A stretch of DNA of 38,642 nt from a virus, in the UHGV virus genome UHGV-0115960. One strand, written 5' to 3'. Shown one piece after another: positions 1 to 38,642 of the stretch; position 1 is the stretch's first letter, and each line of letters begins with the position of its first letter. The notes under the pieces are model-generated. The model ran no database searches, was not told the origin of the DNA, and worked only from the letters and a program-made list of their open reading frames with translations. The translations under genes were made by a program, and so were the position numbers.

Positions 1-49
1 TGACGGGTAAAAAGTGGATAAAATAATTTTACCCACCGGATTTTTACCC
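1..49. promoter_or_regulatory. Repeat cluster upstream of int: GGGTAAAAA (about 5-13) and inverted copies TTTTACCC (about 27-34) and TTTTTACCC (about 41-49); candidate Int/AlpA binding sites or int promoter region
   Basis: Motif copies read directly; matching direct copies sit at the window 3' end (38587-38607). Confidence 0.5.
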
Positions 50-1207
50 ATGCTCACCGTTAAGCAGATTGAAGCAGCAAAGCCGAAAGAAAAACCATAC
101 CGCCTTCTCGATGGTAATGGCCTGTACCTTTATGTCCCTGTATCCGGGAAAAAGGTATGGCAGCTTCGCTACAAGATTGACGGTAAGGAAAAAATACTGA
201 CCGTAGGAAAATATCCGCTAATGACTTTGCAGGAGGCAAGAGATAAAGCATGGACCGCGAGGAAAGACATCTCGGTTGGCATCGATCCGGTAAAAGCGAA
301 AAAGGCTTCGTCTAACAACAATTCCTTTAGTGCGATTTACAAGGAATGGTACGAGCACAAGAAGCAAGTCTGGTCAGTAGGCTATGCAAACGAACTTGCC
401 AAAATGTTTGACGACGACATTTTACCCATCATCGGCGGCCTTGAAATTCAGGATATTGAGCCGATGCAACTGCTGGAAGTAATCCGCAGATTTGAAGATC
501 GCGGTGCAATGGAGCGAGCCAACAAAGCCCGCAGAAGATGCGGAGAGGTTTTCCGTTACGCTATTGTCACCGGAAGGGCTAAATATAACCCGGCACCTGA
601 CCTTGCAGACGCCATGAAAGGATACCGCAAGAAGAACTTCCCGTTTCTTCCTGCAGACCAGATCCATGCATTCAACAAAGCACTGGCAACATTTTCAGGA
701 AGTATCGTATCGCTCATTGCGACCAAAGTCTTACGCTACACAGCCCTAAGAACAAAAGAGCTTCGCTCCATGCAATGGAAGAACGTCGATTTTGAAAACA
801 GGATTATCACCATCGACGCCAATGTGATGAAGGGACGCAAGATTCATGTGGTTCCGATGTCAGACCAGGTGGTTGAACTTCTCACTACGCTAAGCTCAAT
901 CACCAAACCAGTCTCAGAGTTTGTTTTTGCCGGGCGCAACGATAAGAAGAAGCCAATCTGCGAGAACGCGGTATTACTTGTGATCAAACAAATCGGCTAT
1001 GAAGGTCTGGAAAGCGGTCACGGATTCAGGCATGAATTCAGCACGATTATGAACGAGCACGAATGGCCTGCTGACGCTATTGAAGTGCAACTGGCACATG
1101 CCAACGGCGGATCTGTGCGCGGGATTTACAACCATGCTCAGTATCTCGATAAGCGCAGAGAAATGATGCAGTGGTGGGCTGACTGGCTTGATGAAAAGGC
1201 GGAGTGA
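50..1207 (+). CDS. int: Tyrosine integrase, P4/CP4-57 type (arm-binding N-terminus plus catalytic R..HxxR..Y)
   Basis: N-terminus LTVKQIEAAKPKEKPYRLLDGNGLYLYV typical of P4-type integrases; catalytic LRTKELRSMQW, HGFRHEFST, RGIYNHAQYLDKRR. ORF track starts at a GTG at 14; ATG at 50 fits family N-termini better. Confidence 0.9.
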   Translation: MLTVKQIEAAKPKEKPYRLLDGNGLYLYVPVSGKKVWQLRYKIDGKEKILTVGKYPLMTLQEARDKAWTARKDISVGIDPVKAKKASSNNNSFSAIYKEWYEHKKQVWSVGYANELAKMFDDDILPIIGGLEIQDIEPMQLLEVIRRFEDRGAMERANKARRRCGEVFRYAIVTGRAKYNPAPDLADAMKGYRKKNFPFLPADQIHAFNKALATFSGSIVSLIATKVLRYTALRTKELRSMQWKNVDFENRIITIDANVMKGRKIHVVPMSDQVVELLTTLSSITKPVSEFVFAGRNDKKKPICENAVLLVIKQIGYEGLESGHGFRHEFSTIMNEHEWPADAIEVQLAHANGGSVRGIYNHAQYLDKRREMMQWWADWLDEKAE

Positions 1208-1412
1208 CAAAACTTGTATTCGTTTTACTTATTATCAAGCCAGAAGATAAGTCATAATGATCTGCACTCTTTTTCTACACTTTGCTTCTAATTATTTAGA
1301 AATGAATCTATTGTATTCTTTCACATTTACTATTAATCAACTATCATATATCATGCAAAAACATATATTACATTTTTTGCTTTACTTACAGATACTTAAG
1401 GAATAAGTTAGT

Positions 1413-2522: not shown

Positions 2523-2523
2523 A

Positions 2524-2558
2524 AAACAACCACCTCGCAAGAGGTGGTTATTTATAAC
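2524..2558. terminator. Bidirectional rho-independent terminator between the convergent 369-aa gene and tailspike
   Basis: Hairpin ACCACCTCgcaaGAGGTGGT flanked by A-run on one side and TATTTAT on the other. Confidence 0.75.
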
Positions 2559-2617
2559 GACAATAAATAGTATGCAGTATATTTTCCTTTGTCGTTGCTC
2601 TCCAATAATAATGGAAC

Positions 2618-4891: not shown

Positions 4892-5055
4892 TTAATTTTC
4901 TCCAGACGTAGCAATGCGGAACAAGATGCAACTTGCCCGGCATTGCATTAATGTAAGTTATGATTTGTTAACTATGAGATGAGTCTATGCAAAAAGATCT
5001 GTTGAATATTGCGTTCTATATATTTGGTTTTTGCACATTTCTGGTGTTTGCAAAG

Positions 5056-8787: not shown

Positions 8788-8796
8788 ATTCCCACC

Positions 8797-9471: not shown

Positions 9472-9925
9472 TCTTTAGCTCCTCGTATTTTGAGCGCGGT
9501 AACTGATAAATCGTGATGCCTACAGGCTTTCCATTGCTGGTATAAGCATCATCAAGGTGACCAACACGGGTAGCGCCAAGCAAACGGATAATTGACCGTC
9601 CGTATTTGGTGGTGTCAGGAACCATGGTGATGCTGTTAAGGAATGGTGAGTTTTCGAGAAGCCATTTGCAGAATAATCGATGCCCTTGCAGTGCATATTC
9701 ACCACGGAATCCGGGGTCGTACACCGCATGGCATTCCACAACGCTATGCCAGAAGTTACGCACTTCATGAACGCCAGCCAGCACTAATCCTTCGTAGATG
9801 CCGAGGTATACCGCATCAGGCTTGATGTAGTATTTATCTCCACTGTCTACGATATTTCCCGTGTTTTCTGGGTTGTTGAGGAATTCTGCAAGCTTCACCG
9901 GGTTATCGATGAGTTTTATGTGCAT
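9446..9925 (-). CDS. Head assembly/ejection-associated protein, P22 gp14-like
   Basis: 159 aa, position between tail needle and gp7-like as in P22. Confidence 0.65.
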   Translation of the reverse strand: MHIKLIDNPVKLAEFLNNPENTGNIVDSGDKYYIKPDAVYLGIYEGLVLAGVHEVRNFWHSVVECHAVYDPGFRGEYALQGHRLFCKWLLENSPFLNSITMVPDTTKYGRSIIRLLGATRVGHLDDAYTSNGKPVGITIYQLPRSKYEELKNVNFPDCQ

Positions 9926-10626
9926 TAGTTGATTAATCCATGTGCTCGTAAGGCGTCTTCCAGTGCTTTGATGCGCTGCCGCGCCTGCTCCAAACCTGTA
10001 GCGATAGCTGCGACTTCGGATTGTGTGTACGTAGTGCCGACCGTGTATGACTGGTTAGCGTTGAATGAGCCAAGAAGTGGCGTACCTGTGGCTGCAGTCC
10101 ATCCGGTATTTCTTGCTCCAACAACCTGAATTCCATCAACTGAATATGATGTTTTTACATCCAGCGGTGACGCAAGAGACTGCAATTTGGTTACGGTTTT
10201 CGATACGTAATCACTCTTAATGCCAGAGACATCGTTTTCTACGTCATCCAGTCTTTGGTCAACAGTGACCAGATGCGCCTGAATATCGATAACCTCATCC
10301 AGCAAGTAATCAACATCGCTACGCAGTACGACTATCTTCCCTTCGGCAGTTGTTAACCTGACCTCAAGTAGATTTATCGCTTTTGTGTTTGCGGTGATTC
10401 TTGCATCGTGATCTGCCAGTTCGACGTCCTGTTCATCGTTTTTTACCTGGGCATCGTAAGCGCCCTGACCAGCCTGATTTGCCTTCCCGGCAATTGCGCC
10501 AACATCAGCACCCTGATTTATGACATACAGCAGGTAAGACTGGCTGAATATATTGCGTGGCAAAATTGAAGCATCAAGGCGCGTAGCCTGAACCGCGACA
10601 GGATTATTCAGTGATGAATCAGCCAT
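9925..10626 (-). CDS. Tail needle protein (P22 gp26-like), trimeric coiled-coil plug
   Basis: [25 protein letters not shown]...[26 protein letters not shown] matches recalled P22 gp26; 233 aa. Confidence 0.9.
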
Positions 10627-12044
10627 TACTCAATCCTTATCTGGCAGCCAGACAGAGTGACAGGTGACTTCGTGATAACGCGCAATTTGAAGCCGACATT
10701 TTTCCTGATTCGCCCGACACGCTTCCACAAAACGCGTTTGTCGTAAACGAACGGTTCATTCTGCTCAATCATCTGCTCACGACCGTAATTTATGCCGTCA
10801 GTGGTTGCAGAGAGAAAAAGGCGGTCAGCGTACTGAGCAACGCCAGTTGAAGATTCAACTTCAAGGTCGAAAACTCTGGCGTTATCTGCTTTGAACAGTG
10901 GAGTAAACAGCAGGTGTTCCTGTTGCTTGTCGTACTGGCTGCTGATGTCGAACTGCAATTTCCCGGTCAGGGATTCCAGCTTATCGCCGCACGTTATCTG
11001 ATTACCTTCGTAAATGAAGTCGATAGCGCGGTACACATCGTCATACAGTCCTGTTTTCAGCACACACCATTGCGGACCATTAGCGCTTGAAGATGCGTCA
11101 TACACGAGGACGTGGCGCGTAAGATGGATAATCAGCAACTCATGAGCATCAAAGCGCAACGATTCCATCACGCCATCAGCCAGTTCATCAGCAGTGTAGG
11201 AGCGTAGTATTTTCTCAATGCTCGCGCTGGAGATTGGTGATACCTGACCGGAACCGATGATGTACACAGACGGCGCACCTGTTGCCGGATTGCTGATAAA
11301 CGCATAGGAATCAGCAAACGGCGTTTTGCAGTAAGTTCCGGCGATGCCTTTTTGCACCATCAGTGATGGCTGTGCGACATACAAAGCAGCACCAACGGTG
11401 GTTGCGCCAGTCAGGGAGAAATATTCAATCGTCGATGAACCAAAGCAGACGATGAAGTCTCGCCATGTGCCGATACCGATGATGCCGTCCGGCTGCGACT
11501 CGGCACGATATTGTGCGCTGTAACGGTCAGGATGCGATTCGTCTTCAAGGTCAGAGATAAACCATGAATCAGTGCCGTCTTTTGACCACGCATAACGCCC
11601 ACGCAAGCGCGTAATGTCACGAACCGAACCTAACTCATACTGAGTGAATCCGCTATCTGCAGGCCAGTTTGAGACGGTTTTAACCGTGCCATCATAGCGA
11701 TACTCTACCAGTTGACCATTAACGCCTACAGCCTGAGATGTCCGACCATGCGCCATTGATACGCGACCACTTCCAGCGACGTCACCGACTTCGCTTTCGC
11801 CCTTATACAGCTTGCCCCCACACACGCGATATACAGCACTCTGCGCCATGTTGTACTCGACGCCGCGCGATATACCGTTCACATCAGAACGTTTGGCAAT
11901 GCCAGGGAATGAGCGAAGATATCCGCTGCTGTTGAGGATTTCTTTGGGTGTAGCCAACATATTCACTGGCAGATAGTCGATATAGTCGGCGTTTCGAAAG
12001 TCTTTGCCGACACCTTTCATAAGCGGAAGTTGCTGAATCGGCAT
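10626..12044 (-). CDS. Tail accessory / packaged-DNA stabilisation protein (P22 gp10-like)
   Basis: 472 aa, conserved position between gp4 and gp26. Confidence 0.85.
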
Positions 12045-12053
12045 TTATTCACC

Positions 12054-12515
12054 TCACGTACTCGAATCATCTTTCTCGATGTAAAACCGATTCCACGTAA
12101 ACGCGCTTTTGTTACCACTACCGCGAGGCATGTCATTTCGCCGCTCAAGTGGTGGTATTTTGGTTAAAGCGATACAGATTGTTTGATATGCACTGTCAGC
12201 AGCGGTAAGGAGAGCGTCTGACGGCTGAATGACGTTATCCATGCACACTTGCACAGCGAGTTTCAAAGCGACACCATCATTTGCCCATGCAGGGATACCT
12301 GAATCATCGTCAGGTAACGGCATGATGCCGTTTTCTGTATCAGCAAACTGATACCCAAGCTCGATACCTTTCGCCTGCCATGCTGCCATCATGTCTTCGA
12401 GGTCATTAATGGCATCTTCAATTGCCTGAGGGTCAGCATCTGTCAACGTGGCATTGGAATACAGCCCGGCTTTTCGTAAAGCCTTAAGAACGAGATCACC
12501 CTTCGTTTTCGCCAT
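12054..12515 (-). CDS. Tail accessory / head completion protein (P22 gp4-like)
   Basis: 153 aa, position immediately after coat module; ATG with upstream SD. Confidence 0.8.
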   Translation of the reverse strand: MAKTKGDLVLKALRKAGLYSNATLTDADPQAIEDAINDLEDMMAAWQAKGIELGYQFADTENGIMPLPDDDSGIPAWANDGVALKLAVQVCMDNVIQPSDALLTAADSAYQTICIALTKIPPLERRNDMPRGSGNKSAFTWNRFYIEKDDSST

Positions 12516-12684
12516 CTTCTTCCGCCTTAGCCACTTTTTGCTTCGTTGCGGTTTCTTCAGGGGTTTTTACCCAACCTTTTTTCAGGTGAGATTTAACTTC
12601 TTCGTCATCAACAATGATGTAATCGACAGCAAACTGACCACAGGTGATCATGTTGCCAGGCTTATAGAGCATTGTTCGTGCCAT
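12496..12684 (-). CDS. Small hypothetical protein (62 aa from internal ATG) between coat and gp4
   Basis: ORF-track frame; ATG at 12684 preceded by GGAG; no recognised family. Confidence 0.4.
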   Translation of the reverse strand: MARTMLYKPGNMITCGQFAVDYIIVDDEEVKSHLKKGWVKTPEETATKQKVAKAEEDGENEG

Positions 12685-12725
12685 TGTCTTCTCCCAATAA
12701 AAATGGGGCCGAAGCCCCACCTAAA

Positions 12726-13979
12726 TTACTGCCCGGCAATAACGATGCCCGTATATTCAGGAACCAGTACAGAGCAACCGTACAGAGTGGTGAAACGCGC
12801 AGTGGTTACGCCTTTGATGTGGTCGAAGGCGTAAGACATGATCAGCGTAGCGCCCTGCTCGGTGGTTGCTGTCATTACCTGTGGCCCCTGACCAGTAGGG
12901 AACGCCAGTTTGCCGTACATCAGCTCAACAGAACCATCAGCCCAGAACAGGTTGGCCGGTGCGGCATTTTTGTTGAGAATGGTAATTGCTGCACCATTTG
13001 CCGCGTTAGCATCAACGTTTGCATATGGTCGGCTGGCGACATCCGCGTTGTCAGGCGGCAGAATTTTCGGGGAGATAGTTACTGTCGTTCCGCTTACTGC
13101 CAGAACGCGGAATACCTGCGGCTGCCCGGTGGTATCTTTGGTGATCTGGTGTACGGAATTCACCCCTGCAATGGTAAACGCATCGCCAACCTGCAAACCA
13201 GATGCAGATACCGTAATGGTCCCCTGTCGGTTATCCACTGGCATATCGTTGGCATCTTTCGCTTCAACCTTGTGCGCAGGTTCAGCCGCCAGCGTCAGGG
13301 AAGTTGCTGTACCCTTCGGAACACGACCAGAAATATCGGTCTTGTAGCTATCGAAGGACGCAACCGGAGGGATCTGCGCTTTTTCGTATGCTGTCAAGGT
13401 TGCGCCCTGAGCATAGGCACGGTGACCAAGCTCGCCAGCAAGGTCTTTGTAGTTGAAGGGGTTCCAGAAAGAGCGGCGGTTGATACCCTGCGGTACACCA
13501 ATCGCCGTCATAGTGGCATCAATACCTGCCGCACAGTTCCACAAATCACGGCCCTGTGAACCAGTGGTTGAGTCAGACATTGTGATCACGTTAGTAGCAC
13601 GCTGCGTAACCATGGAAATTAGGTCAGAGTCAATCTGTGCAGCAAGGCGCATACCTGCGGCGCGACCAGCTTCAGTTTTATGCTCAGGGTCACGCATTTC
13701 ACGCGCATCCAGAGTGTACAGAATGTTTTTCGGCTCCTTGAATACAGAAGGAACAAGGCGCTGAACCAGTGCTGTAGGCGTTTTTCCGCTGAGGTCGAGG
13801 CCTTCCTCAATGTTCATGTGGTAATGCTGCGGACGATACAGAACATCACCTGCTCGCTGCATTGCTGTATCACCGGGACGGAATTTTTTAGCGTTACGGG
13901 AAACTACGCAGGCGGCCTCAAAGCCTTCAACGTAGTTTTCGAACATGATTTCAAGGTCTTTTGCTAATTGGTTAGCCAT
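12726..13979 (-). CDS. Major capsid (coat) protein, P22/Sf6 gp5-like
   Basis: 417 aa, follows scaffold gene; HK97-fold coat of P22-like phages by size and position. Confidence 0.9.
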   Translation of the reverse strand: MANQLAKDLEIMFENYVEGFEAACVVSRNAKKFRPGDTAMQRAGDVLYRPQHYHMNIEEGLDLSGKTPTALVQRLVPSVFKEPKNILYTLDAREMRDPEHKTEAGRAAGMRLAAQIDSDLISMVTQRATNVITMSDSTTGSQGRDLWNCAAGIDATMTAIGVPQGINRRSFWNPFNYKDLAGELGHRAYAQGATLTAYEKAQIPPVASFDSYKTDISGRVPKGTATSLTLAAEPAHKVEAKDANDMPVDNRQGTITVSASGLQVGDAFTIAGVNSVHQITKDTTGQPQVFRVLAVSGTTVTISPKILPPDNADVASRPYANVDANAANGAAITILNKNAAPANLFWADGSVELMYGKLAFPTGQGPQVMTATTEQGATLIMSYAFDHIKGVTTARFTTLYGCSVLVPEYTGIVIAGQ

Positions 13980-13997
13980 GCTTAATGCTCCGATAGG

Positions 13998-14891
13998 TTA
14001 TTTTTTTGCCTTTTTAGCGGCGAAATACGGCGTCCAGTCACCAGTTTCCAGCGCCTTGGCTTTCAGTTTGTCGAGGTTATTGATTACTGCGCCGTTGCTC
14101 CCCTTAACTGTCGGGGTTGTGGCTGCCGTGGTTTTTGCTTTTGGCATGATTCTTGCCTTCGATTCGATACGTTCCAGCAGACGACCAATTGCTACGGGGT
14201 TGGTAGCTTCTGCCAGTTGCTTGCGCAGTTCAGCGTTGCGACCGAGCGCCAGAACAACGATTTCCGGCTTCTCTGACTCAAACAGGATCGCGTTTTGTGT
14301 CTCTATGGGGATTTCCTCGAGTACGGCCTGTTCAGCTTCCTGATAGCCAGGAACCTTGAGAGCCTTAACACGTTGCTGATATTTGGATAATCGCTCTTGA
14401 TAGGCAGCCTGAAGCTCCTGCTCCTTCTGCTTGCGAGCCATCTCCTGTTGCTGGTATTTGCCGTTGTCCTCCGCCCACTTAGCCATGCGTTGCTGGTAGA
14501 TTTCTTCATCGAAACCGATGTCCTCATCATCCAGTTTTGGCATTCGCGGTGGTTGAGTGATTACCGGCTGCTGCTCGACGGGTTTCTGAGACTGACGCAT
14601 CAGCTCTTTCAGCTCGCGGTCTTTCTCTTTAATCGTCTTGCGCAGGTGTTTTACCAGTCCATGCTCTGCGCTATCTTCGCTGGTTGGCGAATCCAGCTTT
14701 TCGTCACCAAAGTAGAATTCCTGTTCTGATTCGTCGTCATCAGTGTCAGTAGCTTCCTCTGCATCATTTCCTGAGGACTCACTGCCATCTGCTTTTTCGA
14801 CTTCTTCAGCCAGTTCGACATCATCAGGAATCTGCTCTGACGCGTCGGTTTCGATTTCAACTTCTGGTGTGTTTTCTGCCATCTGGTCCAT
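13998..14891 (-). CDS. Scaffolding protein (P22 gp8-like)
   Basis: 297 aa, acidic N-terminus, highly charged helical sequence, KK C-terminus; between portal and coat. Confidence 0.85.
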   Translation of the reverse strand: MDQMAENTPEVEIETDASEQIPDDVELAEEVEKADGSESSGNDAEEATDTDDDESEQEFYFGDEKLDSPTSEDSAEHGLVKHLRKTIKEKDRELKELMRQSQKPVEQQPVITQPPRMPKLDDEDIGFDEEIYQQRMAKWAEDNGKYQQQEMARKQKEQELQAAYQERLSKYQQRVKALKVPGYQEAEQAVLEEIPIETQNAILFESEKPEIVVLALGRNAELRKQLAEATNPVAIGRLLERIESKARIMPKAKTTAATTPTVKGSNGAVINNLDKLKAKALETGDWTPYFAAKKAKK

Positions 14892-20629: not shown

Positions 20630-21115
20630 TTATTTCAGTTCGTTACCAGGCATTTCTTTTAGCTCTTTCAAATGACAACGATTGAGACTAAACCACTCCC
20701 CGTGCGACCTATAGTTGTAATATTTTTGGTGCAATTTGGTTTCAAGCTCTCTATCGGCCGGAATCTTTGCAATTAGATTTAGCTTCCCACCACTCATGCG
20801 AGATATCTCTGAAATCCGTTTATTAACCCTGCGACTAAACCCTATTTTTGTTAGCCCACTATCTTCAGCATGCAGAACGTACACATATGATTTTTGCGAA
20901 GCACTGGGTGCGACTTTGTTGTAATTAATCATGTCAAACATGAAGCCTTGCTTTAGCAAAGTTTCAAAAAAGATAGAATTAACACACCCATTCCTTCTCA
21001 GCTCTGCACTTAGCTTGTCAATTTCCTCTATGATGTCGCCAGACCCCTTTCCACTTATAAGAAAATCTTGGTACATGCGACCAATTCTTGAGGTAATTTC
21101 AACAAAGTTATTCAT
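20630..21115 (-). CDS. T5orf172 / GIY-YIG-like domain protein (161 aa)
   Basis: C-terminal SYVYVLHAEDSGLTKIGFSRRVNKRISEI...ELETKLHQKYYNYRSHGEWFSL matches the T5orf172 signature; ATG with AAGGTAA upstream; AT-rich. Confidence 0.6.
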   Translation of the reverse strand: MNNFVEITSRIGRMYQDFLISGKGSGDIIEEIDKLSAELRRNGCVNSIFFETLLKQGFMFDMINYNKVAPSASQKSYVYVLHAEDSGLTKIGFSRRVNKRISEISRMSGGKLNLIAKIPADRELETKLHQKYYNYRSHGEWFSLNRCHLKELKEMPGNELK

Positions 21116-24456: not shown

Positions 24457-24619
24457 GATTCCTCCTTGCTGCCAGTCGCAACCATTTTTTATCAACCAGG
24501 CTGGCGGTATATCCGAGCAGAGTTGGTATTTCGGATGGCTTCAGCTCAGGTTTACGCTTACGACGATTTGGTACTTTGTAGATGTGTCCGTTCATGACAC
24601 GAATAAGCGGTGTAGCCAT
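24449..24619 (-). CDS. Small nin-region protein (NinE-like, 56 aa)
   Basis: ATG overlaps NinB stop (TAATG); basic KRKPELKPSEIPTL segment; assignment from memory only. Confidence 0.4.
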   Translation of the reverse strand: MATPLIRVMNGHIYKVPNRRKRKPELKPSEIPTLLGYTASLVDKKWLRLAARRNHG

Positions 24620-25074
24620 TACGCCTCCTGCTTGTCGCGCAGCAGCTGGAACTCGCAGCTCTGTGGAATAGTCAGGTGGCAACCAATATTCATCGCCCAG
24701 GCTTCAACCTTACACAGGAAGACATACATCTCTCCGGTATCAAGATCGGAGGTATGGCGTAACGACTGGATAGTGGTGATATCACCGGTTACGACATCAA
24801 CCAGGTCTTTGGTTTCATAACCGAGATATGTGTGTTTGAGAGCATCTTTTACCCAAGCTGGAGTGGCGAACGTTTTACCCCTGCTGATGAGGTATTCACT
24901 GATTTCGCTGTACCACATGTGGCTGAGTGCATTCTGGGAAAGACTGCGTCTCTCGCGCCACGGTTTAAGCACCATGCGAAAGCATTTGCCGTCCTCCAGA
25001 TAAGGCTGGATCTGCCGACCGATAGCGGTGAAGTTACCGCGATGCAATTTGATACCATCTTGTGGGAGGTTCAC
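24619..25074 (-). CDS. ninB: NinB/Orf-family recombination protein
   Basis: Motif [16 protein letters not shown] resembles NinB RSLDQN signature; GTG start with GGAGGTG upstream; first gene of nin block. Confidence 0.7.
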
Positions 25075-25349: not shown

Positions 25350-26768
25350 ATGAAATATTTCTCAACTGGTTTTTATGTTTCAAACTCCACATCTCTAGCT
25401 GAGATCTTTAATGAATGTTTTTCTTGGGTAAACGACTCACCACATACAACTTTTATTCCAGCACAATTAGTATGTGATTATAAAAGCGAGGAGTACTTCA
25501 TAGAGTCTAAAAATGAAAGAATTGATATAATAACTTATAAAAACAAAGATACTAGTTTAGGCTGTTTTAGGTATTCGAAAATATCTGAGCCACACAAATG
25601 GATAACAGATATTTCAATTAATAAAAATCTCAAAACTGATACCATGTGGATTCAGGTGGAATCTAGCGTTGTAAGCCAAGATGCAGCTTATCTAGCCCCG
25701 CAACCTAAGAAACCATTAGTTGTTATGAGATTGATTGATAAATTTCCTGGTGGTCTTGATGATATTTTCAAGGTGTCAGTCGAACCTCATTCCTTAGATG
25801 ATACTGATGAACATTTAAATATAGCAGCTAAAGTTATAAATGGTGAAACTGACAACAGACTACCAATAATATACGTTAGCTCCAAGTATTTTTTTAATGA
25901 ACATGCTCACAATATCATCCCAGAACGCCTTGCAAGAAAGGTATGCGGATTAGCACATGTATTAATTGAGCCTAGCAATAGACTATTTTCTATTAAGCTA
26001 AAAAATGAGACAAATGCTAAAAATGCCTATGCTGGTGCTGTTGGTATCTATTGGCCACGGGGTCAAAATATCAGTTTTTATCGCCGTGGTGAGAAAACCG
26101 CAAAAGAATTTGAAGATGAGTTATTTGATGATGTTGTAAGAGCTACGACTACAATGGCTCCTGTCTCAGATAGTGGATGGAGTGAGATACAAACCAGAAA
26201 AACGAAAGACTCTATTAACTCACTCAAAGAAAGAGGAGAATACACACGCGAACTGATGGCGCTTTACGAAGCCGATAATGTTGCGAAAGATGACCAAATA
26301 GAAGATCTTAAGCATAAGATCTCCTCTTTAGAGCACAGAGTACGCACTCTTCAATCACAAGCTTCAGCCCAAGGAAGCATTGCGCTTAATGCTGGTGAAG
26401 AGACTGACTTTTTTGATGGAGAAATCAAAAATATAATTATTGACGCACTAAAAACTGCCATAAAAAATAAAAATGAATTTGGTAGAAGCTACCATATCTT
26501 ATCATCCCTAATTGCCAATAATGAATACAATAAAGAAACCGAGAGTCGCCGCCAATTACTTAAAAGGACTTTAACAGGTTACAGAAGCATGGATAGCGCA
26601 ACACAAAGAAATTTAAAGGACTTAGGTTTCAGTGCGTCAAGCGATGGAAAACACTGGAAGTTAACATATAATGAAGACCCTCGATATTCCTATATTTTAC
26701 CTAAAACAGGAAGTGACCACAGAGGTTCTTTAAATGCTATCTCGGATATAGCAAACATTATTTTCTAA
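25350..26768 (+). CDS. Uncharacterised 472-aa protein, AT-rich moron antisense to the early-right operon
   Basis: Long ORF with strongly AT-biased codons, own upstream AT-rich region and downstream hairpin; central coiled-coil segment; no recognised family. Confidence 0.8.
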   Translation: MKYFSTGFYVSNSTSLAEIFNECFSWVNDSPHTTFIPAQLVCDYKSEEYFIESKNERIDIITYKNKDTSLGCFRYSKISEPHKWITDISINKNLKTDTMWIQVESSVVSQDAAYLAPQPKKPLVVMRLIDKFPGGLDDIFKVSVEPHSLDDTDEHLNIAAKVINGETDNRLPIIYVSSKYFFNEHAHNIIPERLARKVCGLAHVLIEPSNRLFSIKLKNETNAKNAYAGAVGIYWPRGQNISFYRRGEKTAKEFEDELFDDVVRATTTMAPVSDSGWSEIQTRKTKDSINSLKERGEYTRELMALYEADNVAKDDQIEDLKHKISSLEHRVRTLQSQASAQGSIALNAGEETDFFDGEIKNIIIDALKTAIKNKNEFGRSYHILSSLIANNEYNKETESRRQLLKRTLTGYRSMDSATQRNLKDLGFSASSDGKHWKLTYNEDPRYSYILPKTGSDHRGSLNAISDIANIIF

Positions 26769-30889: not shown

Positions 30890-31642
30890 GTGATGGAGTG
30901 CGTAGCGAGCAGCAATAGTGCAATACCTAATGTCGTTGAGGTAATACGTCGCATCAATGAAGGTTCCACTCAGCCATTTCTTTGCAAATGTGATGATGGG
31001 CAGTTGTATGTTTTGAAGTCAAAACCATCAATGCCCCCGAAAAATCTCTTAGCTGAGTTCATTTCGGCGTGTTTGGCTAATGATATCGGCCTTCCTTTAC
31101 CTGACTTTAAAATCGTATTTGTGCCAGAGGAACTTATAGAGTACTCACCTGATCTGCAGCAACAAATTTGTACAGGATATGCCTTTGCTTCATTGTTCAT
31201 TGACGGTGCAATAGCGTTAACGTTTACGCAGTCAAGAAACGAAACGATCATCCCAGTCGAACAGCAAAAATTAATCTATGTTTTTGATAAATGGATATTA
31301 AATGCAGACAGAACGCTTACTGACAAAGGTGGAAACGTTAACATCCTTTATGACATCAGTAACGATAAGTATTATCTGATTGACCATAATCTCTCATTTG
31401 ATCAGAATGCTGGACCTGAAGATTTTTCTGTGCACGTGTACGGCCCTGGTAACCGCAAATGGCAATATGATTTAGTGGATCGCGTAGAGTACCGCCAGAG
31501 GGTCGTTAACAGTTTACACAAGCTTCCTGCTATCCTTGACGAAATTCCAGAAGAGTGGATAGTAGATGAGGAGTTTTTACCTTTTGTCTGCACTACGCTA
31601 GACAAAGGTGATTGTGATGAATTTTGGAGCGCAATAGAATGA
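30890..31642 (+). CDS. Protein-kinase-like fold protein (HipA/aminoglycoside-phosphotransferase-like catalytic motifs), 250 aa, downstream of cI
   Basis: Candidate catalytic loop TDKGGNVNIL and downstream LIDHNLSFD about 20 residues later; candidate ATP-binding Lys in LYVLKSK; lower GC than backbone. Confidence 0.55.
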   Translation: MMECVASSNSAIPNVVEVIRRINEGSTQPFLCKCDDGQLYVLKSKPSMPPKNLLAEFISACLANDIGLPLPDFKIVFVPEELIEYSPDLQQQICTGYAFASLFIDGAIALTFTQSRNETIIPVEQQKLIYVFDKWILNADRTLTDKGGNVNILYDISNDKYYLIDHNLSFDQNAGPEDFSVHVYGPGNRKWQYDLVDRVEYRQRVVNSLHKLPAILDEIPEEWIVDEEFLPFVCTTLDKGDCDEFWSAIE

Positions 31643-32466
31643 CAACTCCATGCCTATATAGCATCGTTCGCTATGCGCCTTATGCGGAGACTGAAGAGTT
31701 CGCAAACATAGGCGTACTTCTGTGCGCGCCAAAAGAAAATTACTTTGATTTCCAGCTCACAAAGCGAAATGACTCTCGTGTAAAGAATTTTTTCCATGAT
31801 GATTGTATTTTCCCTGTAGCAAAAGACTCAATACAAAGAGAACTACAGTTCGCAAAAATGCATGCGACCCAGATTGTTGGACATCAACAACTTGCACAAT
31901 TCTTCAGATATTTTACAAACAAAAAAGAATCAATTTTTCAGTTCAGTTCTACGAGAGTGATTCTCAGCGAAAACCCAAAAGAAGAGCTGGCCCGCATTTA
32001 CAATAAATATGTAAACCACTCTGACTACACAAAAGAGCGCCGTGAAGATGTTCTAGCCAGAGAGCTAAAACGAAGTATCGATAGAATAGATGGATTGAAG
32101 AACCTCTTCAAACAAGCAACCATTGATGGGTATTTCGCAAAGTTCTCAATGCCATTGGTCGCCAAGAAGCATGACAGGATCCAATGTGCCATCAAACCTC
32201 TGGCATTCACTCAAGCTGAACCAGGAAAAATGATGGAGCATAGTGATACTTGGGTGATGAGAATAACTCGAGCAGCAGAAGAAAACCTGCTTTCACTTGA
32301 TGACATTTTATTCACAATTGAAACTCCTGAATCACCAAACTCAGGCCAAAGCAAAGTTATTGACATCATAAAGAGAACTATGGATGCTAAGAAAATAAAT
32401 CATATACCTGCATCCAACCACAAAGAAACTATTGATTTTGCAAAAAAAATACTTCCCCAAGTTTAA
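31639..32466 (+). CDS. DUF3037-like protein (275 aa), translationally coupled to the kinase-like gene
   Basis: N-terminal YSIVRYAPYAETEEFANIGVLL resembles DUF3037 signature (from memory); ATGA start/stop overlap with upstream gene. Confidence 0.6.
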   Translation: MTTPCLYSIVRYAPYAETEEFANIGVLLCAPKENYFDFQLTKRNDSRVKNFFHDDCIFPVAKDSIQRELQFAKMHATQIVGHQQLAQFFRYFTNKKESIFQFSSTRVILSENPKEELARIYNKYVNHSDYTKERREDVLARELKRSIDRIDGLKNLFKQATIDGYFAKFSMPLVAKKHDRIQCAIKPLAFTQAEPGKMMEHSDTWVMRITRAAEENLLSLDDILFTIETPESPNSGQSKVIDIIKRTMDAKKINHIPASNHKETIDFAKKILPQV

Positions 32467-32500
32467 AATTTATTTTTGTATGTGATATTCCTTATTAATA

Positions 32501-32530
32501 ACCCGGCCACCGTGCCGGGTTTTCTTTTGC
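32501..32530 (+). terminator. Rho-independent terminator ending the cI-kinase-DUF3037 operon (tImm equivalent)
   Basis: CCCGGCcaccgtGCCGGG followed by TTTTCTTTT. Confidence 0.75.
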
Positions 32531-32599
32531 CTCCCCTCATCACACACACCGTTCAAAAAACCACCACAACCTCGCTTCAGTTATCGCTATGCAATTCAA

Positions 32600-32770
32600 G
32601 TCACAAAATAAATCCATCCCAAATACAACCAGTTATATCTAAAACAACCAATAAAACAACTTATGTTGTTGACGATAATACAACTATAGTTTTAAATAAG
32701 TTCATCGCAACAACACAATCATACGGCAACCACCTGATTCACCGTTGCGATGACCGCTTAGATCCGCAGC
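32600..32770 (+). promoter_or_regulatory. pL/oL-like region: operator half-sites and putative promoter
   Basis: Palindrome AACAACttatGTTGTT at about 32655-32670 and further AACAACC copies match oR half-site; TTGACG-17-TTAAAT about 32669-32697. Confidence 0.45.
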
Positions 32771-33181
32771 TTGAATTTCAGCAGGCTTCGGGGAGTGCGA
32801 GGGGTGAAACGGACGCGTGAACGTCGGTGTGACCAGCTGAAATCAACACAACACTTTATACCTCAGTCGCTTCAAGGAGGCGGCTTAGTTATGACAACCG
32901 GCGGCCATCCACCGCCTGAATACGCGCAGAAGTCTCTATATGTTCAGCAGCCCAGCTTACGGGCAGGAGTTTTTATGGTTCATCAACATTACGGAACGCA
33001 GACCGTTAATCGCGGTGCGGTCATGCCAGGAATGCTGGTCAAACACAAAGATGGTACCTGGACTGCATCAGCTAATTTACGCGGACGGCTTTATCTGCAT
33101 CGCGGCATCGAGCGCACTTATACCCGTGACTTGCTCGTGGAAGTTTTTCTCGACGGACGCGGCAACGGCCTGAATCACTAA
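32771..33181 (+). CDS. N-like antiterminator (arginine-rich motif near N-terminus); start uncertain (TTG 32771, GTG 32795 or 32804)
   Basis: Arg-rich motif [14 protein letters not shown] resembles N-protein ARMs; first gene after pL-like region. Confidence 0.5.
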
Positions 33182-33256
33182 CCCCCTTTCCTGTTTTCCT
33201 AATCAGCCTGGCATTTCGCGGGCGATATTTTCACAGCCATTTTCAGGAGTTCAGCC

Positions 33257-33553
33257 ATGAACGCTTATTACATTCAGGATCGTCTTGAGGCTCAGAGCTG
33301 GGCGCGTCACTACCAGCAGATCGCCCGTGAAGAGAAAGAGGCAGAACTGGCAGACGACATGGAAAAAGGCCTGCCCCAGCACCTGTTTGAATCGCTATGC
33401 ATCGATCATTTGCAACGCCACGGGGTCAGCAAAAAAGCCATTACCCGTGCGTTCGATGACGATGTTGAGTTTCAGGAGCGCATGGCAGAACACATCCGGT
33501 ACATGGTTGAAACCATTGCTCACCACCAGGTTGATATTGATTCAGAGGTATAA
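33257..33553 (+). CDS. gam: Gam (short GamS form, RecBCD inhibitor)
   Basis: 98 aa near-identical to recalled C-terminal portion of lambda Gam starting at [21 protein letters not shown]. Confidence 0.9.
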
Positions 33554-33558
33554 AACGG

Positions 33559-34344
33559 ATGAGTACAGCACTCGCAACGCTGGCTGGGAAGCTGGCTGAA
33601 CGTGTCGGCATGGATTCTGTCGACCCACAGGAACTGATCACCACTCTTCGCCAGACGGCATTTAAAGGTGATGCCAGCGATGCGCAGTTCATCGCATTGT
33701 TGATCGTCGCCAACCAGTACGGCCTTAATCCGTGGACGAAAGAAATTTACGCCTTCCCTGACAAGCAGAACGGCATCGTTCCGGTGGTGGGCGTTGATGG
33801 CTGGTCCCGCATCATCAATGAAAACCAGCAGTTTGATGGCATGGACTTTGAGCAGGACAATGAATCCTGCACATGCCGGATTTACCGCAAAGACCGCAAT
33901 CATCCGATCTGCGTTACCGAGTGGATGGATGAATGCCGCCGCGAACCATTCAAAACCCGCGAAGGCAGAGAAATCACGGGGCCGTGGCAGTCGCATCCCA
34001 AACGGATGTTACGACATAAAGCCATGATTCAGTGTGCCCGTCTCGCCTTCGGATTTGCTGGTATCTATGACAAGGATGAAGCCGAGCGCATTGTCGAAAA
34101 TACCGCATACACTGCAGAACGTCAGCCGGAACGCGACATCACTCCGGTTAACGATGAAACCATGCAGGAGATTAACACTCTGCTGATTGCCCTGGATAAA
34201 ACATGGGATGACGACTTATTGCCGCTCTGTTCCCAGATATTTCGCCGCGACATTCGCGCATCGTCAGAACTGACACAGGCCGAAGCAGTGAAAGCTCTTG
34301 GATTCCTGAAACAGAAAGCCACTGAGCAGAAGGTGGCAGCATGA
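33559..34344 (+). CDS. bet: Bet (Red-beta single-strand annealing protein)
   Basis: 261 aa near-identical to recalled lambda Bet ([48 protein letters not shown]...). Confidence 0.97.
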
Positions 34345-35021
34345 CACCGGACATTATACTGCAGCGTACCGGGATCGACGTGAGAGCTGTCGAACAGGGG
34401 GATGATGCATGGCACAAATTACGGCTCGGCGTCATCACCGCTTCAGAAGTTCACAACGTGATAGCAAAGCCCCGATCAGGAAAGAAGTGGCCTGACATGA
34501 AAATGTCCTACTTCCACACCCTGCTGGCTGAGGTTTGCACCGGTGTGGCTCCGGAAGTTAACGCTAAAGCGCTGGCCTGGGGAAAACAGTACGAGAACGA
34601 CGCCAGAACCCTGTTTGAGTTCACTTCCGGCGTAAATGTTATTGAATCCCCGATCATCTATCGCGACGAAAGTATGCGCACCGCCTGCTCTCCCGATGGT
34701 TTATGCAGTGACGGCAATGGCCTTGAGCTGAAATGCCCGTTTACCTCCCGGGATTTCATGAAATTCCGGCTCGGTGGTTTCGAGGCCATAAAGTCGGCTT
34801 ACATGGCCCAGGTGCAGTACAGCATGTGGGTGACGCGAAAAGATGCCTGGTACTTTGCCAACTATGACCCGCGTATGAAGCGTGAAGGCCTGCATTATGT
34901 CGTGATTGAGCAGGATGAAAAGTACATGGCGAGTTTTGACGAGATGGTGCCGGAGTTCATCGAAAAAATGGACGAGGCACTGGCTGAAATTGGTTTTGTA
35001 TTTGGGGAGCAATGGCGATGA
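34341..35021 (+). CDS. exo: Exo (lambda exonuclease, Red-alpha)
   Basis: 226 aa near-identical to recalled lambda Exo ([40 protein letters not shown]...). Confidence 0.97.
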
Positions 35022-35176
35022 AGCATCCTCACGATAATATCCGGGTAGGCACGATCACTTTCGTCTACTCCGTTACGAAGCGAGGCTGGGTATTTCCCGG
35101 CCTTTCTGTTATCCGAAATCCCCTGAAAGCACAGCGGCTGGCTGAGGAGATAAATAATAAACGGGGAGCTGTATGA
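35018..35176 (+). CDS. Small protein (52 aa), DUF1317-like, translationally coupled to exo and to the methyltransferase
   Basis: Not in ORF track (<60 aa); ATGA overlaps at both ends; sequence [52 protein letters not shown]. Confidence 0.5.
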
Positions 35177-35730
35177 CTGATTTCACCGGAAGCAATACTC
35201 CTGCCGAACATCGCGACAGCTGGCGCACACCACCAGAGATTTTTGCTGCGCTTAATGCAGAGTTCGTTTTTCAACTTGATGCTGCCGCCAGCGAAAAAAA
35301 CCGACTATGTCGGCTTTTTATCTCACAGGAGCAGAACACATTAACCACTTCATGGCCTGAAGCAATGGGATATGCCTCTGGTTATGTCTGGTTGAATCCA
35401 CCATACAGCAATATTTCCCCTTTTGTGAAAAAGGCAGCCACTGAAAACAAATTCAGCAGTGTGGGATGTGTAATGTTATTACCTGCTGACACATCTGTCG
35501 GATGGTTTCATGAAGCGATACAAACCGCCAGTGAGGTCAGATTCATCACGGCAGGACGACTGGCATTTATTAACCCACTCACCGGGAAACACGTCAGTGG
35601 AAATAATAAAGGCTCGATGCTCATTATCTGGCACCCATACCCCCGTACACACTGCCACTTTACGACCGTTGATCGTGGAGAGTTGATGGCGTTCGGCTCA
35701 AGGATTCTTGCCCGTCGGGAGGCTGCATGA
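35173..35730 (+). CDS. DNA N6-adenine methyltransferase (phage Dam family)
   Basis: Catalytic NPPY motif (VWLNPPYSN) and N-terminal WRTPPEIF. Confidence 0.85.
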   Translation: MTDFTGSNTPAEHRDSWRTPPEIFAALNAEFVFQLDAAASEKNRLCRLFISQEQNTLTTSWPEAMGYASGYVWLNPPYSNISPFVKKAATENKFSSVGCVMLLPADTSVGWFHEAIQTASEVRFITAGRLAFINPLTGKHVSGNNKGSMLIIWHPYPRTHCHFTTVDRGELMAFGSRILARREAA

Positions 35731-35810
35731 CAACCACGGAATGCATTTTTCTGGCAGCGGGCTTCATATTCTGTGTGCTTATGCTTGCCGACATGGGACT
35801 TGTTCAATGA
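35727..35810 (+). CDS. Putative 27-aa hydrophobic membrane micro-protein
   Basis: Not in ORF track; MTTTECIFLAAGFIFCVLMLADMGLVQ; ATGA overlaps with upstream and downstream genes. Confidence 0.35.
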   Translation: MTTTECIFLAAGFIFCVLMLADMGLVQ

Positions 35811-36022
35811 CACCTCAGCAGGAAAACGCCCTTCGCAGCATTGCCCGTCAGGCTAATTCTGAAATCAAAAAAGCCAGACAGCAGTTTCCGGATAAAAACG
35901 TCGATGACATTTGCCGTAGCGTACTGAAGAAGCACCGCGAAACGGTAACGCTGATGGGATTCACACCGACTCATTTAAGCCTGGCGATCGGCATGTTAAA
36001 CGGCGTCTTTAAGGAGCGATGA
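35807..36022 (+). CDS. Hypothetical protein (71 aa from ATG at 35807)
   Basis: ORF-track frame; ATG overlapping stop of the micro-ORF; no family recognised. Confidence 0.5.
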   Translation: MTPQQENALRSIARQANSEIKKARQQFPDKNVDDICRSVLKKHRETVTLMGFTPTHLSLAIGMLNGVFKER

Positions 36023-36043
36023 ACATGAAAAGCAAAATCATCA

Positions 36044-36068
36044 GGGAGCTACAGGCTCCTTTTTTATT
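36044..36068 (+). terminator. Rho-independent terminator within early-left operon (tL-like)
   Basis: GGAGCtacagGCTCC followed by TTTTTTATTATT. Confidence 0.6.
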
Positions 36069-36120
36069 ATTCGCATTCACCCTCAAGCGTATTAACCAAC
36101 AATTCAGGGATTAATGGAAG

Positions 36121-36342
36121 ATGGCAGACATCATTGATTCAGCATCAGAAATCGAAGAATTACAGCGCAATACAGCAATAAAAATGCGCCGCCTGAACCA
36201 CCAGGCTATATCTGCCACTCATTGTTGTGAGTGTGGCGATCCCATAGATGAGCGAAGACGCCTGGCCGTTCAGGGTTGGCGGACTTGTGCAAGTTGCCAG
36301 GAAGATCTGGAGCTTATCAGTAAACAGAGAGGTTCGAAGTGA
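36121..36342 (+). CDS. TraR/DksA-family C4 zinc-finger protein
   Basis: CCECGDPIDERRRLAVQGWRTCASCQ four-cysteine motif in a 73-aa protein. Confidence 0.8.
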   Translation: MADIIDSASEIEELQRNTAIKMRRLNHQAISATHCCECGDPIDERRRLAVQGWRTCASCQEDLELISKQRGSK

Positions 36343-36983
36343 GCGAAATTAACTCTCAGGCACTGCGTGAAGCGGCAGAGCAGGCAATGCATGACAACTG
36401 GGGATTTGACGCGGACCTTTTCCATGAGCTGGTAACACCATCGATTGTGCTGGCACTGCTGGATGAACGGGAAAGAAACCAGCAATACGTCAAACGCCGC
36501 GACAATGAGAACGAGGATATTGCACTAACGGTAGGGAGGCTGAGAGTTGAGCTGGAAGGCAAAGACAGCAAGATAGCCAATCTTACCGCCGAACGCGATG
36601 CTCTTCGTGAAGGTGAGATGGGCGACGCTAGGCATAGCAACACACGGGCCGCAGCTGATATCTACTTCCAACTGGTCGAGGAGTGCGAAATTCCTGCTGG
36701 CGGATCTCTGGTCGAGTACGTTGACGATATGCGCGAGAAGCTGGAAGCCGCAGAGAAGCGCATTGCAGAGTTAGAAAGTGGTTCTCAGGCACAAAAGTTA
36801 GTTGAAGCAATCATTGTTGCGATAGAAAACGAACAGGAAAGGCTTTTTGATGAAGATTACCTAATGGATTCGAAAGAATGCATTGACGTAATTCGTGAAG
36901 AAGTAAAGCGATGGAATGATTCCCGTGCCGCTGGCATTCGCATCAAAGGAGACGCAGGAGAACAAAACGATGAAAAACCGTAA
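36339..36983 (+). CDS. Ead/Ea22-like protein (coiled coil)
   Basis: N-terminus MSEINSQALREAAEQAMHDNWGFD typical of Ea22-like prophage proteins (from memory); heptad-rich middle. Confidence 0.65.
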   Translation: MSEINSQALREAAEQAMHDNWGFDADLFHELVTPSIVLALLDERERNQQYVKRRDNENEDIALTVGRLRVELEGKDSKIANLTAERDALREGEMGDARHSNTRAAADIYFQLVEECEIPAGGSLVEYVDDMREKLEAAEKRIAELESGSQAQKLVEAIIVAIENEQERLFDEDYLMDSKECIDVIREEVKRWNDSRAAGIRIKGDAGEQNDEKP

Positions 36984-37158
36984 AGCAAAAATTCTTTTGA
37001 CCTGTAGAAATGCTCGCGGCATCCAGCAATGGTTAAAACTCAGTAACCGCAGAATGGGGCTGTTCACAAATACGGCTGATATTGTGATGTGTTCACTTAA
37101 CAAGCCCAGCGCGGCGCAAAACCGCTGGAAAAACCACTTTCGCACTAAAGGAGAGTGA
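36970..37158 (+). CDS. Small basic hypothetical protein (62 aa from internal ATG)
   Basis: ORF-track frame; overlaps end of Ea22-like gene. Confidence 0.4.
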   Translation: MKNRKAKILLTCRNARGIQQWLKLSNRRMGLFTNTADIVMCSLNKPSAAQNRWKNHFRTKGE

Positions 37159-37159
37159 T

Positions 37160-37984
37160 ATGACCACTTTCACCGACAAAGAACTGATTAAAGAAATCAA
37201 AGAGCGTATCAGCAGCCTGGACGTTCGAGACAATATTGAACGCCGGGCTTATGAAATTGCACTGGCATCGCTGGAAGCAGATCCAGTTGCTTATATTTTC
37301 AAACATCCGGCTGGGAAATTATTCTGGTCTTTAACGGATAAAAGCAATAAAGAGCAAGCGGACGTTATTCCTGTTTATGCTGCCGCGCCTGCGTCGGTTG
37401 TGCCGGATAATGCATCAGAGCCTCTTGCTTATGCTTACAAAGAGCTTACGCCTGAGATTATGCGCAACCATTTAGCTGTATTCGAGCGATATGGAATAGC
37501 CCCAAACGATAGCTCTACCACAATTCATGCACTGCGAATCGCGCTGGATGGCATAGAGCGGAGCGACGCCATGCTTCATGGTGCCGAACCTGTAAGCCAA
37601 ACTTACAAGTTGCCAGTTAATACACCTTGCCAAGATGCGCCAGCCCATATCTGGCTGCAAACGGCTGGAGTATGGCCAGAAGATGGCGAGTTAAGCGAAT
37701 TAACGTGGTGCAGCCACAATCAGCACCATGATGACACGCTATATGTTCGAGCTGACTTGGTAAATGGCAACTCTCCGGTAACTCCGGATGGTTGGATAAG
37801 CTGTAGTGAGCTAATGCCAGATGATGGTCAGCACGTAATTATTTTATGTGATGGCGCATTCGTTCTTTATGCGCAATATCGAGACGGAGAGTTTTTCGAT
37901 ATTGTCCGCAATGGTGATGAATTTTTCGAAACACAGAGTCGCAATGTAACCGACTGGATGCAACTACCAGAACCTCCTCTTTGA
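37160..37984 (+). CDS. DUF551 domain protein
   Basis: C-terminal PDGWISCSELMPDDGQHVIILCDG...WMQLPEPP resembles DUF551. Confidence 0.65.
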   Translation: MTTFTDKELIKEIKERISSLDVRDNIERRAYEIALASLEADPVAYIFKHPAGKLFWSLTDKSNKEQADVIPVYAAAPASVVPDNASEPLAYAYKELTPEIMRNHLAVFERYGIAPNDSSTTIHALRIALDGIERSDAMLHGAEPVSQTYKLPVNTPCQDAPAHIWLQTAGVWPEDGELSELTWCSHNQHHDDTLYVRADLVNGNSPVTPDGWISCSELMPDDGQHVIILCDGAFVLYAQYRDGEFFDIVRNGDEFFETQSRNVTDWMQLPEPPL

Positions 37985-38080
37985 TAGCTAAGCTTATACA
38001 TATCTTTTACATCAGCAATCTATTGTTAATCTCCAATCAATGTTACGTTGTCATCTCTCTCATGCTTTGGAGGTAGTGAT

Positions 38081-38260
38081 ATGTCTTGTCCAAAATGCGG
38101 TTCTGGAAATATTGCAAAAGAAAAAACAATGCGTGGATGGTCTGATGATTATGTGTGCTGCGATTGCGGATACAACGACTCTAAAGACGCATTTGGAGAG
38201 CGTGGTAAAAACGATTTTGTCAAAATTAATAAAGAACGCGAAGGCAACGAAAAAAGCTAA
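38081..38260 (+). CDS. Small zinc-ribbon protein (59 aa)
   Basis: CPKCGS...CCDCGY pairs; ATG at 38081 with GGAGG upstream. Confidence 0.55.
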   Translation: MSCPKCGSGNIAKEKTMRGWSDDYVCCDCGYNDSKDAFGERGKNDFVKINKEREGNEKS

Positions 38261-38323
38261 TTTATTTATTCATATATGAAAACAATGTAACCAATATTCG
38301 AATTGAAGAACTGAAAGAACACC

Positions 38324-38347
38324 AAGCCGCCTGATGGCGGTTTTTTA
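38324..38347 (+). terminator. Rho-independent terminator
   Basis: GCCGCCtgatGGCGG followed by TTTTTTATT. Confidence 0.7.
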
Positions 38348-38391
38348 TTGCCTGATTTGCAGGTTCGATTCCCTATTCGGAGATAGCACTC

Positions 38392-38592
38392 ATGCAACAC
38401 GAACTACAGCCTGATTCACTGGTTGATTTGAAATTCATCATGGCCGATACTGGCTTCGGTAAGACCTTCATCTATGACCGGATTAAGTCCGGCGACCTGC
38501 CTAAAGCCAAAGTTATACACGGGCGAGCAAGATGGTTATATCGTGACCATTGTGAATTCAAAAATAAGCTCTTAAGCCGCGCCAATGGGTAA
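38392..38592 (+). CDS. AlpA/Vis-family excisionase-like regulator
   Basis: 66 aa; LVDLKFIMADTGFGKTFIYDRIKSGDLPKAKVIHGRARWLYRD fits AlpA family pattern; lies immediately upstream of int if window ends are joined. Confidence 0.8.
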   Translation: MQHELQPDSLVDLKFIMADTGFGKTFIYDRIKSGDLPKAKVIHGRARWLYRDHCEFKNKLLSRANG

Positions 38593-38642
38593 AATAGCGG
38601 GTAAAATATTTCTCACATCTAAAAAACACCATTCCAATCAAT
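38587..38642. promoter_or_regulatory. Two direct GGGTAAAAT copies (about 38587-38595 and 38599-38607) downstream of alpA-like gene; part of a repeat cluster that continues at window start
   Basis: Read directly; same 8-mer core as the copies at 5-13, 27-34 and 41-49. Confidence 0.5.

Follow-up and report, generated by a model that had tools for sequence, protein, structure and literature searches.

The IntS–TorI recombination module of a probable HK620/Sf6-type Escherichia coli prophage at argW, trimmed inside attL and attR

The window analysed in this study is the whole 38,642-nucleotide sequence of the virus genome UHGV-0115960. Its plus strand opens with the integrase gene intS and closes with the small gene torI, and copies of a short repeat lie at both ends (Table 1). 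The intS reading frame starts with the ATG at position 50, not 51, and ends at 1207. The Pfam architecture of its product is Arm-DNA-bind_3 (DUF4102), Phage_int_M and Phage_integrase (E = 2e-25, 4e-28 and 2e-39), that is, the N-terminal arm domain, the central domain and the catalytic domain of a P4-like, arm-binding tyrosine integrase, and the protein is 33% identical to IntA of CP4-57. The label "P4-type integrase", which an original prediction made from the bare sequence had given to this gene, is therefore right.

The gene at the other end had been called an AlpA-family gene in the same prediction. On its product the Pfam model Phage_AlpA (PF05930) scores 12.7 bits (E = 0.12), below the gathering threshold of 21, and HTH_17 scores 16.9 bits, below the cut-off of 27. 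In a BLASTP comparison with K-12 AlpA only 20 residues align, with 6/20 identities. Membership in the AlpA family was rejected on the Pfam score, and the protein is instead TorI, identical in 66 of 66 residues both to the K-12 protein and to PDB 1Z4H chain A, "Tor inhibition protein". The term AlpA-family is valid for TorI only loosely, in the sense of small winged-helix recombination directionality factors (RDFs). AlpA is described as an activator of intA, in contrast to TorI, which is a repressor of intS. A scan of positions 38000–38642 for consensus promoters found none upstream of torI.

Exact-protein look-ups led to contigs that are 100% identical to window positions 1–14891 and 31160–38642, referred to below as the identical contigs. 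The early and lysis genes of the window comprise cI, a cro-like and a cII-like gene, O, P, nin genes, Q and lysis genes, and the late genes encode terminase, P22 portal, scaffold, coat, gp4, gp10, gp26, ejection proteins and tailspike. According to Pfam matches on the identical contigs, the P22 portal, the coat, gp4, gp10, gp26, the ejection proteins and the head-binding domain of the tailspike place the phage with the P22-like (Lederbergvirus-type) phages, and the virion module matches Kapi1, CUS-3 and Sf101 at the DNA level. The P22-like/lambdoid set is complete, which bears out the earlier view of a whole-phage gene complement whose map closes to a circle.

Several further genes were noted along the way. 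A 369-aa ORF (1413–2522, plus strand) occupies the usual seroconversion or moron slot between int and the tailspike gene, with a GC content of 34–36% compared with 47% for the phage. It has no Pfam match, and its homologues are rare and unnamed save for one UniRef entry, "ATP-grasp domain-containing protein". Its AlphaFold model (pLDDT 92.8) resembles the ATP-grasp ligases RimK, LysX/ArgX, Ddl and PsnB in Foldseek (E ~1e-7, TM 0.42–0.56), and the ORF is thus a predicted ATP-grasp-fold gene. A 40-mer taken from this ORF has no match in either IMG/VR or the GTDB representative genomes. Against complete E. coli genomes, window positions 1–5000 are covered to at most 33% in any record, owing to the rarity of the tailspike and of the ORF beside it.

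Just downstream of the cI-like repressor gene, a HipA_2 kinase-like gene (30890–31642, plus strand) overlaps a DUF3037 gene (31624–32466, plus strand), and the pair matches the PADLOC candidate defence system PDC-M66 (component A, E = 6e-15; component B, E = 4e-16). Antisense to the nin-region genes around it is a 472-aa ORF (25350–26768, plus strand) without a Pfam match; it matches HEC-07 of PADLOC weakly (E = 1e-9) and may be a moron or a defence gene. Between the lysis genes and the small terminase gene, a protein with a T5orf172/MUG113 (GIY-YIG-like) domain is encoded on the minus strand (20630–21115), with a weak PADLOC match to PDC-S57.

Table 1. Features of the integration module in the window, with arm-type sites as assigned in this study.
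Feature	Position	Strand	Remarks
Distal P' arm of attL/attP: intS promoter -10 box, transcription start and 5' leader	1..49	+	100% identical to K-12 KplE1 attL and HK620 attP
IntS arm-type site P'1, GGGTAAAAA	5..13	+	TAAAAA at 8-13 is the PintS -10 box
Degenerate direct arm-type copy, one mismatch, GGATAAAA	16..23	+	overlaps mapped intS transcription starts, window 19/20
Inverted IntS arm-type site, GGGTAAAAT on minus strand	26..34 (8-mer 27-34)	-	HK620 repeat_region L001 972-997; invariant in relatives
Inverted IntS arm-type site, GGGTAAAAA on minus strand	41..49 (8-mer 42-49)	-	immediately adjoins int ATG; annotated in HK620; invariant
intS, P4-like heterobivalent tyrosine integrase, 385 aa	50..1207	+	380/385 identical to K-12 IntS
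Further exact GGGTAAAA copy inside int, candidate site	420..427	-	"attP" repeat in HK620 record, L001 1365-1375
Further exact GGGTAAAA copy	12565-12572	-	from motif count
Further GGGTAAAA pair, 26 nt apart	24847-24854, 24873-24880	-	different reading frames of NinB-like ORF 24619-25074
Intrinsic-terminator-like hairpin and T-run	38324..38343	+	closes upstream eag-like gene, before torI
16-nt exact copy of argW T-arm, TTGCAGGTTCGATTCC	38357..38372	+	argW positions 46-61; 20 nt upstream of torI
torI (= HK620 hkaC), winged-helix recombination directionality factor (excisionase), 66 aa	38392..38592	+	66/66 identical to K-12 TorI
P-arm arm-type site, GGGTAAAAT	38587..38595	+	HK620 "attP" repeat_region L001 741-763; invariant
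Distal P arm of attR/attP	38593..38642	+	window end 23 nt short of crossover core
Second direct P-arm arm-type site, GGGTAAAAT	38599..38607	+	12 nt from first; annotated in HK620; invariant

Reading both ends and counting the motif confirmed the five repeat copies that had been proposed to lie there, at the same coordinates. The exact 8-mer GGGTAAAA occurs nine times in the window on both strands, compared with 0.86 ± 0.82 copies expected from 100 dinucleotide shuffles, a roughly tenfold enrichment; a count of nine or more was reached in 0 of the 100 shuffles. The clustering of five copies within ~105–255 nt has a scanning-corrected Poisson probability of ~1e-8 to 1e-6. The first P-arm copy overlaps the Gly66 codon and the stop codon of torI (GGG TAA), and the degenerate copy on the P' side lies inside an "attP" repeat_region of the HK620 record (L001 951–972). 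Across 12 attP sequences 21 columns are variable, and none of them falls among the 95 motif columns of arm sites, core, TorI motifs and -35 box (P = 3e-5); P'1 is invariant in all 12. Additional IntS operators are conceivable at the copy within int (420) and at the pair within the ninB-like gene (24847 and 24873).

Because the att portions of the window, its terminal 49 and 50 nt, are 100% identical to attL and attR of K-12 KplE1, as well as to HK620 attP, the published KplE1 experiments apply to them directly. In KplE1 the core is duplicated and 16 nt long, the IntS arm-type P' sites have TAAA in common, P'1 overlaps the intS -10 box (TAaAAa), the -35 box is TTGACA and the intS transcripts start at K-12 positions 2464536/7 (PMC2951348, Panis et al. 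2010). The same paper locates five TorI sites with the motifs GTTCG, GATCG or GTCCG in two blocks between the core and the -35 box, and reports repression of PintS by both IntS and TorI (PMC2951348). The KplE1 sites have been mapped and mutated. Converted from K-12 coordinates, the intS transcription starts fall at window positions 19/20, and by identity to K-12 the TAAA-containing arm site P'1 lies over the -10 box. The TTGACA lies 18 nt upstream of this box, 12–17 nt upstream of window base 1 and thus outside the window. The assignment of sites to proteins and the autorepression of intS are accordingly taken over from experiments on identical KplE1 DNA, whereas the identity itself and the conservation of the sites were observed here.

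An alternative assignment is that the repeats are sites of the winged-helix RDF TorI and not of the integrase. Two direct copies 12 nt apart right after the RDF gene do resemble a typical RDF site array, and TorI binds att DNA cooperatively (PMC3509656). Against this, the KplE1 TorI sites are the GTTCG/GATCG/GTCCG motifs on attL, from the core to the -35 box, and all five of these fall in a 150-bp piece outside the window, with none in its att portions, whereas the TAAA-containing sites are described as IntS arm-type sites in the identical KplE1 sequence. Binding of TorI to the repeats is thus very improbable, and by their sequence the GGGTAAAA(A/T) repeats are assigned as IntS arm-type sites, not RDF sites. 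Of the suggestion that they are candidate Int or AlpA sites, the recombinase half stood and the RDF half fell, since the TorI motifs differ from the repeats. Panis 2007 (J Biol Chem) and Panis 2010 (Virology) reportedly footprinted the attR (P-arm) sites, and from this together with motif identity and the HK620 annotation we infer that the two P-arm copies after torI are bound by IntS like the P' copies.

The two ends, which carry the RDF gene, the att arms and the int gene, do form one integration module, as had been predicted. The prediction had also taken the last and first bases to be directly contiguous, and the last 500 and first 500 bases of the window were fused into a 1000-nt end-join query. 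Against HK620, HK633, Sf6 and others this query matched with 97–98% identity, always in at least two pieces and with at least 150 bp of extra span, and against 17 E. coli records, including 39-kb circular replicons, it was likewise split by at least 150 bp. Exactly 150 bp separate the last and first bases of the window in HK620, HK633, Sf6 and 10 IMG/VR genomes. In the HK620 alignment the last 257 nt of the window stop at attP offset 257 and the first bases resume at offset 407. The absent piece begins with 23 bp of P arm and ends with 111 bp of P' arm. Between them lies the crossover core CTGCAGGGGACACCAT, 16 bp long and identical to the 3' end of tRNA-Arg argW; besides the core, the piece holds the five TorI-binding motifs and the intS -35 box. 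A 32-mer spanning a direct join of 38642 to 1 gave 0 matches in 2.9 M viral contigs (IMG/VR) and 185,579 species genomes, whereas the control, a 66-mer of intact attP, was present in 10 viral contigs of 25–41 kb.

A full, circularly permuted genome, with its last and first bases adjacent and the five repeats in one unbroken array, would account for the halves of one module at the two ends and for the complete gene set, and relatives have been assembled as 39-kb circles (H40, H42). Yet every record that has both halves has at least 150 bp more in between, and the join 32-mer is absent from both large collections. In addition, 49 nt of the window precede the int ATG and 50 nt follow the torI stop codon, margins that point to a cut by gene coordinates (±50, off by one) and not to biological ends. 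Direct contiguity of the ends is thereby contradicted, and an adjacent-ends genome is very improbable. What holds of the "full, circularly permuted genome" is that the P22-like gene set is whole and the map closes to a circle; the ends are 150 bp apart. ARAGORN found no tRNA within the window, and the core is likewise absent from it. With no tRNA present, the window by itself does not reveal where att lies.

The identical contigs supply the missing context. Outward from window base 1 they carry the 111 bp of P' arm, followed by the core, here forming the 3' end of tRNA-Arg(CCT), and by yfdC and mlaA; argW/yfdC/mlaA start 127 bp upstream of base 1. Beyond base 38642 they carry 23 bp, the core and then host DNA with sucrose (csc) genes, which begins 38 bp after the last base of the window. 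The core thus stands between the RDF gene and int, and is found at both prophage borders beside tRNA-Arg(CCT), and int and torI lie at opposite prophage ends with host DNA past each of them; this layout and this integration context are direct observations of the present analysis. For the ORF next to int, the order mlaA–yfdC–int, integrated at argW, was found in 10 of the 10 loci listed. The 150 bp rebuilt from the flanks of the identical contigs are identical to HK620 at 145 of 150 positions. Host DNA flanking the ends, which the original prediction had itself named as the observation that would speak against it, was thus largely found, on contigs 100% identical to the window, and this argues equally against adjacent ends.

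Since the identical contigs are integrated, the gene set is complete and exactly 150 bp are lacking, the sequence is an att-opened prophage permutation of a genome of ~38,792 bp minus 150 bp, and not a closed circle. With a probability of about 0.93, the window is a complete HK620/Sf6-type (P22-like, lambdoid-mosaic) E. coli prophage at argW (tRNA-Arg(CCU)) that was trimmed inside attL and attR, with the repeats as IntS arm sites. All six features that define the argW recombination module of the KplE1/HK620/Sf6 type were found, three of them (core, TorI motifs and host flanks) on the identical contigs outside the window. A prophage of this kind would have ...GGTTCGATTCCTGCAGGGGACACCATTTATCAGTTCG... 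upstream of base 1 and CCCCTGCTGCTTCAAGTAGATGTCTGCAGGGGACACCA downstream of base 38642, followed by host DNA.

A natural variant in which a deletion removed the attP core, and with it the ability to integrate, would be another explanation, in keeping with the lack of any core or tRNA sequence inside the window. The 100%-identical sequence is integrated with intact attL and attR, though, and the missing piece is bounded exactly by the 49- and 50-nt margins around the first and last coding sequences, which makes such a variant highly improbable. In principle the window could also stem from a free-phage assembly with an attP deletion. Repeats that arose by chance as A/T-rich, promoter-like sequence and bind no protein would fit a short motif of which one copy coincides with a -10 box, but this reading has next to no probability given the shuffle counts, the invariance of the sites while the spacers vary, and the conservation of their positions in a divergent Klebsiella module.

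The closest known system is KplE1 (CPS-53), with intS, torI and attL–attR at argW. TorI is 100% and IntS 99% identical to the proteins of the window, the arm sequences are identical, int and the RDF gene lie at opposite prophage ends, the intS promoter is inside attL and the target is argW. KplE1 differs in being a 10-kb defective remnant and not a full P22-like genome, and the window differs in lacking the core, the TorI sites and the -35 box. The phages HK620 (AF335538), HK633 and Sf6 (AF547987) share the xis(hkaC)–attP–int region at 97–98% identity and the P22-like morphogenesis genes. The HK620 record gives the attP core at L001 821–836, annotates the repeats of the window as "attP" repeat regions and lists two promoters. 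Unlike the window, these records are free-phage permutations with an intact attP. As mosaicism leads one to expect, they also have a different tailspike and a different gene in the int–tailspike interval, and diverge over much of the early region.

The Klebsiella phage vB_Kpn_Chronis (MN013086; L025 1101–1560) has the same layout of xis, P arm, core, P' arm and int at a greater distance, with ~76% DNA identity in the int segment and 86% identity in the RDF. GRGTAAAR arm sites, GTTCG-type motifs and TTGACA are all kept in position, and the core is the variant ATGCAGGGGACAC. The Chronis module is a useful outgroup for the site consensus.

The logic of the module is that of lambda attP, with its arm sites P1, P2 and P'1–P'3 and its Xis sites: a heterobivalent integrase spans arm and core sites, and bending of one arm by an RDF directs the reaction towards excision. 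In lambda, int and xis are co-transcribed on one side of attP, whereas here attP lies between int and the RDF gene, the int promoter is autorepressed inside attL and the RDF sites are on the int-side arm. CP4-57 alpA/intA and P4 vis/int share the integrase family, the Arm-DNA-bind_3 domain, a tRNA or tmRNA target and a small winged-helix partner. The arrangement had been called typical of CP4-57-type modules; this comparison failed on layout, as in K-12 one side of att carries both intA and alpA (order intA–yfjH–alpA), whereas here att is between the two genes.

By homology to these systems, the N-terminal arm-binding domain of IntS would bind the GGGTAAAA(A/T) repeats, of which the P arm has two direct copies and the P' arm one direct, one degenerate direct and two inverted copies. 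IntS would connect the arm-type sites with the core sites on either side of the overlap within the 3' end of argW, with strand exchange within the 16-bp core. The intasome would consist of IntS on arms and core, plus TorI for excision, where TorI would coat the five sites of the int-side arm and thereby set the excision direction. With attP between torI and intS, integration would part the two genes to opposite ends of the prophage and leave intS with its own promoter inside attL; the excised circle would measure ~38,792 bp and have the order torI, P arm, core, P' arm, intS. The P' sites extend from the intS -10 box, where P'1 lies, across the transcription start into the leader, so that IntS bound there also represses its own gene, and TorI represses intS from the sites beside the -35 box. 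Binding and repression are published for identical DNA, and for the other steps the scheme should be read as probable by homology.

A further trace of argW lies upstream of torI in the form of the T-arm copy TTGCAGGTTCGATTCC, for which the chance expectation of a 16-nt argW match is ~1e-3. It ends where the att core starts in the tRNA. Because TTGCAGGTTCGATTCC and the core are contiguous in argW, torI and the P arm are enclosed by neighbouring parts of this tRNA gene. The copy is also found in K-12 KplE1 and in HK620, where it falls within a stretch annotated as a cII-dependent "phage integration" promoter. A T-arm relic as a general feature of such modules was considered, but the divergent Klebsiella phage Chronis has none. 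One might read the split argW 3' half around torI and the P arm as a fossil of the insertion of an RDF gene into a longer tRNA-derived attP, or as a relic with a present role, be it within the cII-dependent promoter or as a secondary site of recombination. We regard this proposal, which also counts the extra GGGTAAAA copies as IntS operators, as speculative and rather unlikely.

The module, its core, the arm-type and RDF sites and the autoregulation of int are already known from KplE1 (2005–2012) and from the HK620 record (2001). Work on the KplE1 module is reportedly that of Panis, Mejean and Ansaldi from 2007 to 2012. The identical sequence having been worked out in KplE1 and annotated in HK620, the finding carries little biological weight. 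A prophage window bounded by int and xis should not be circularised by a plain end-to-end join, which here would remove the crossover site together with the RDF operators, and margins of 49 and 50 nt are a flag of a coordinate-based cut. The true excised genome can be rebuilt as the window plus the 150 bp.
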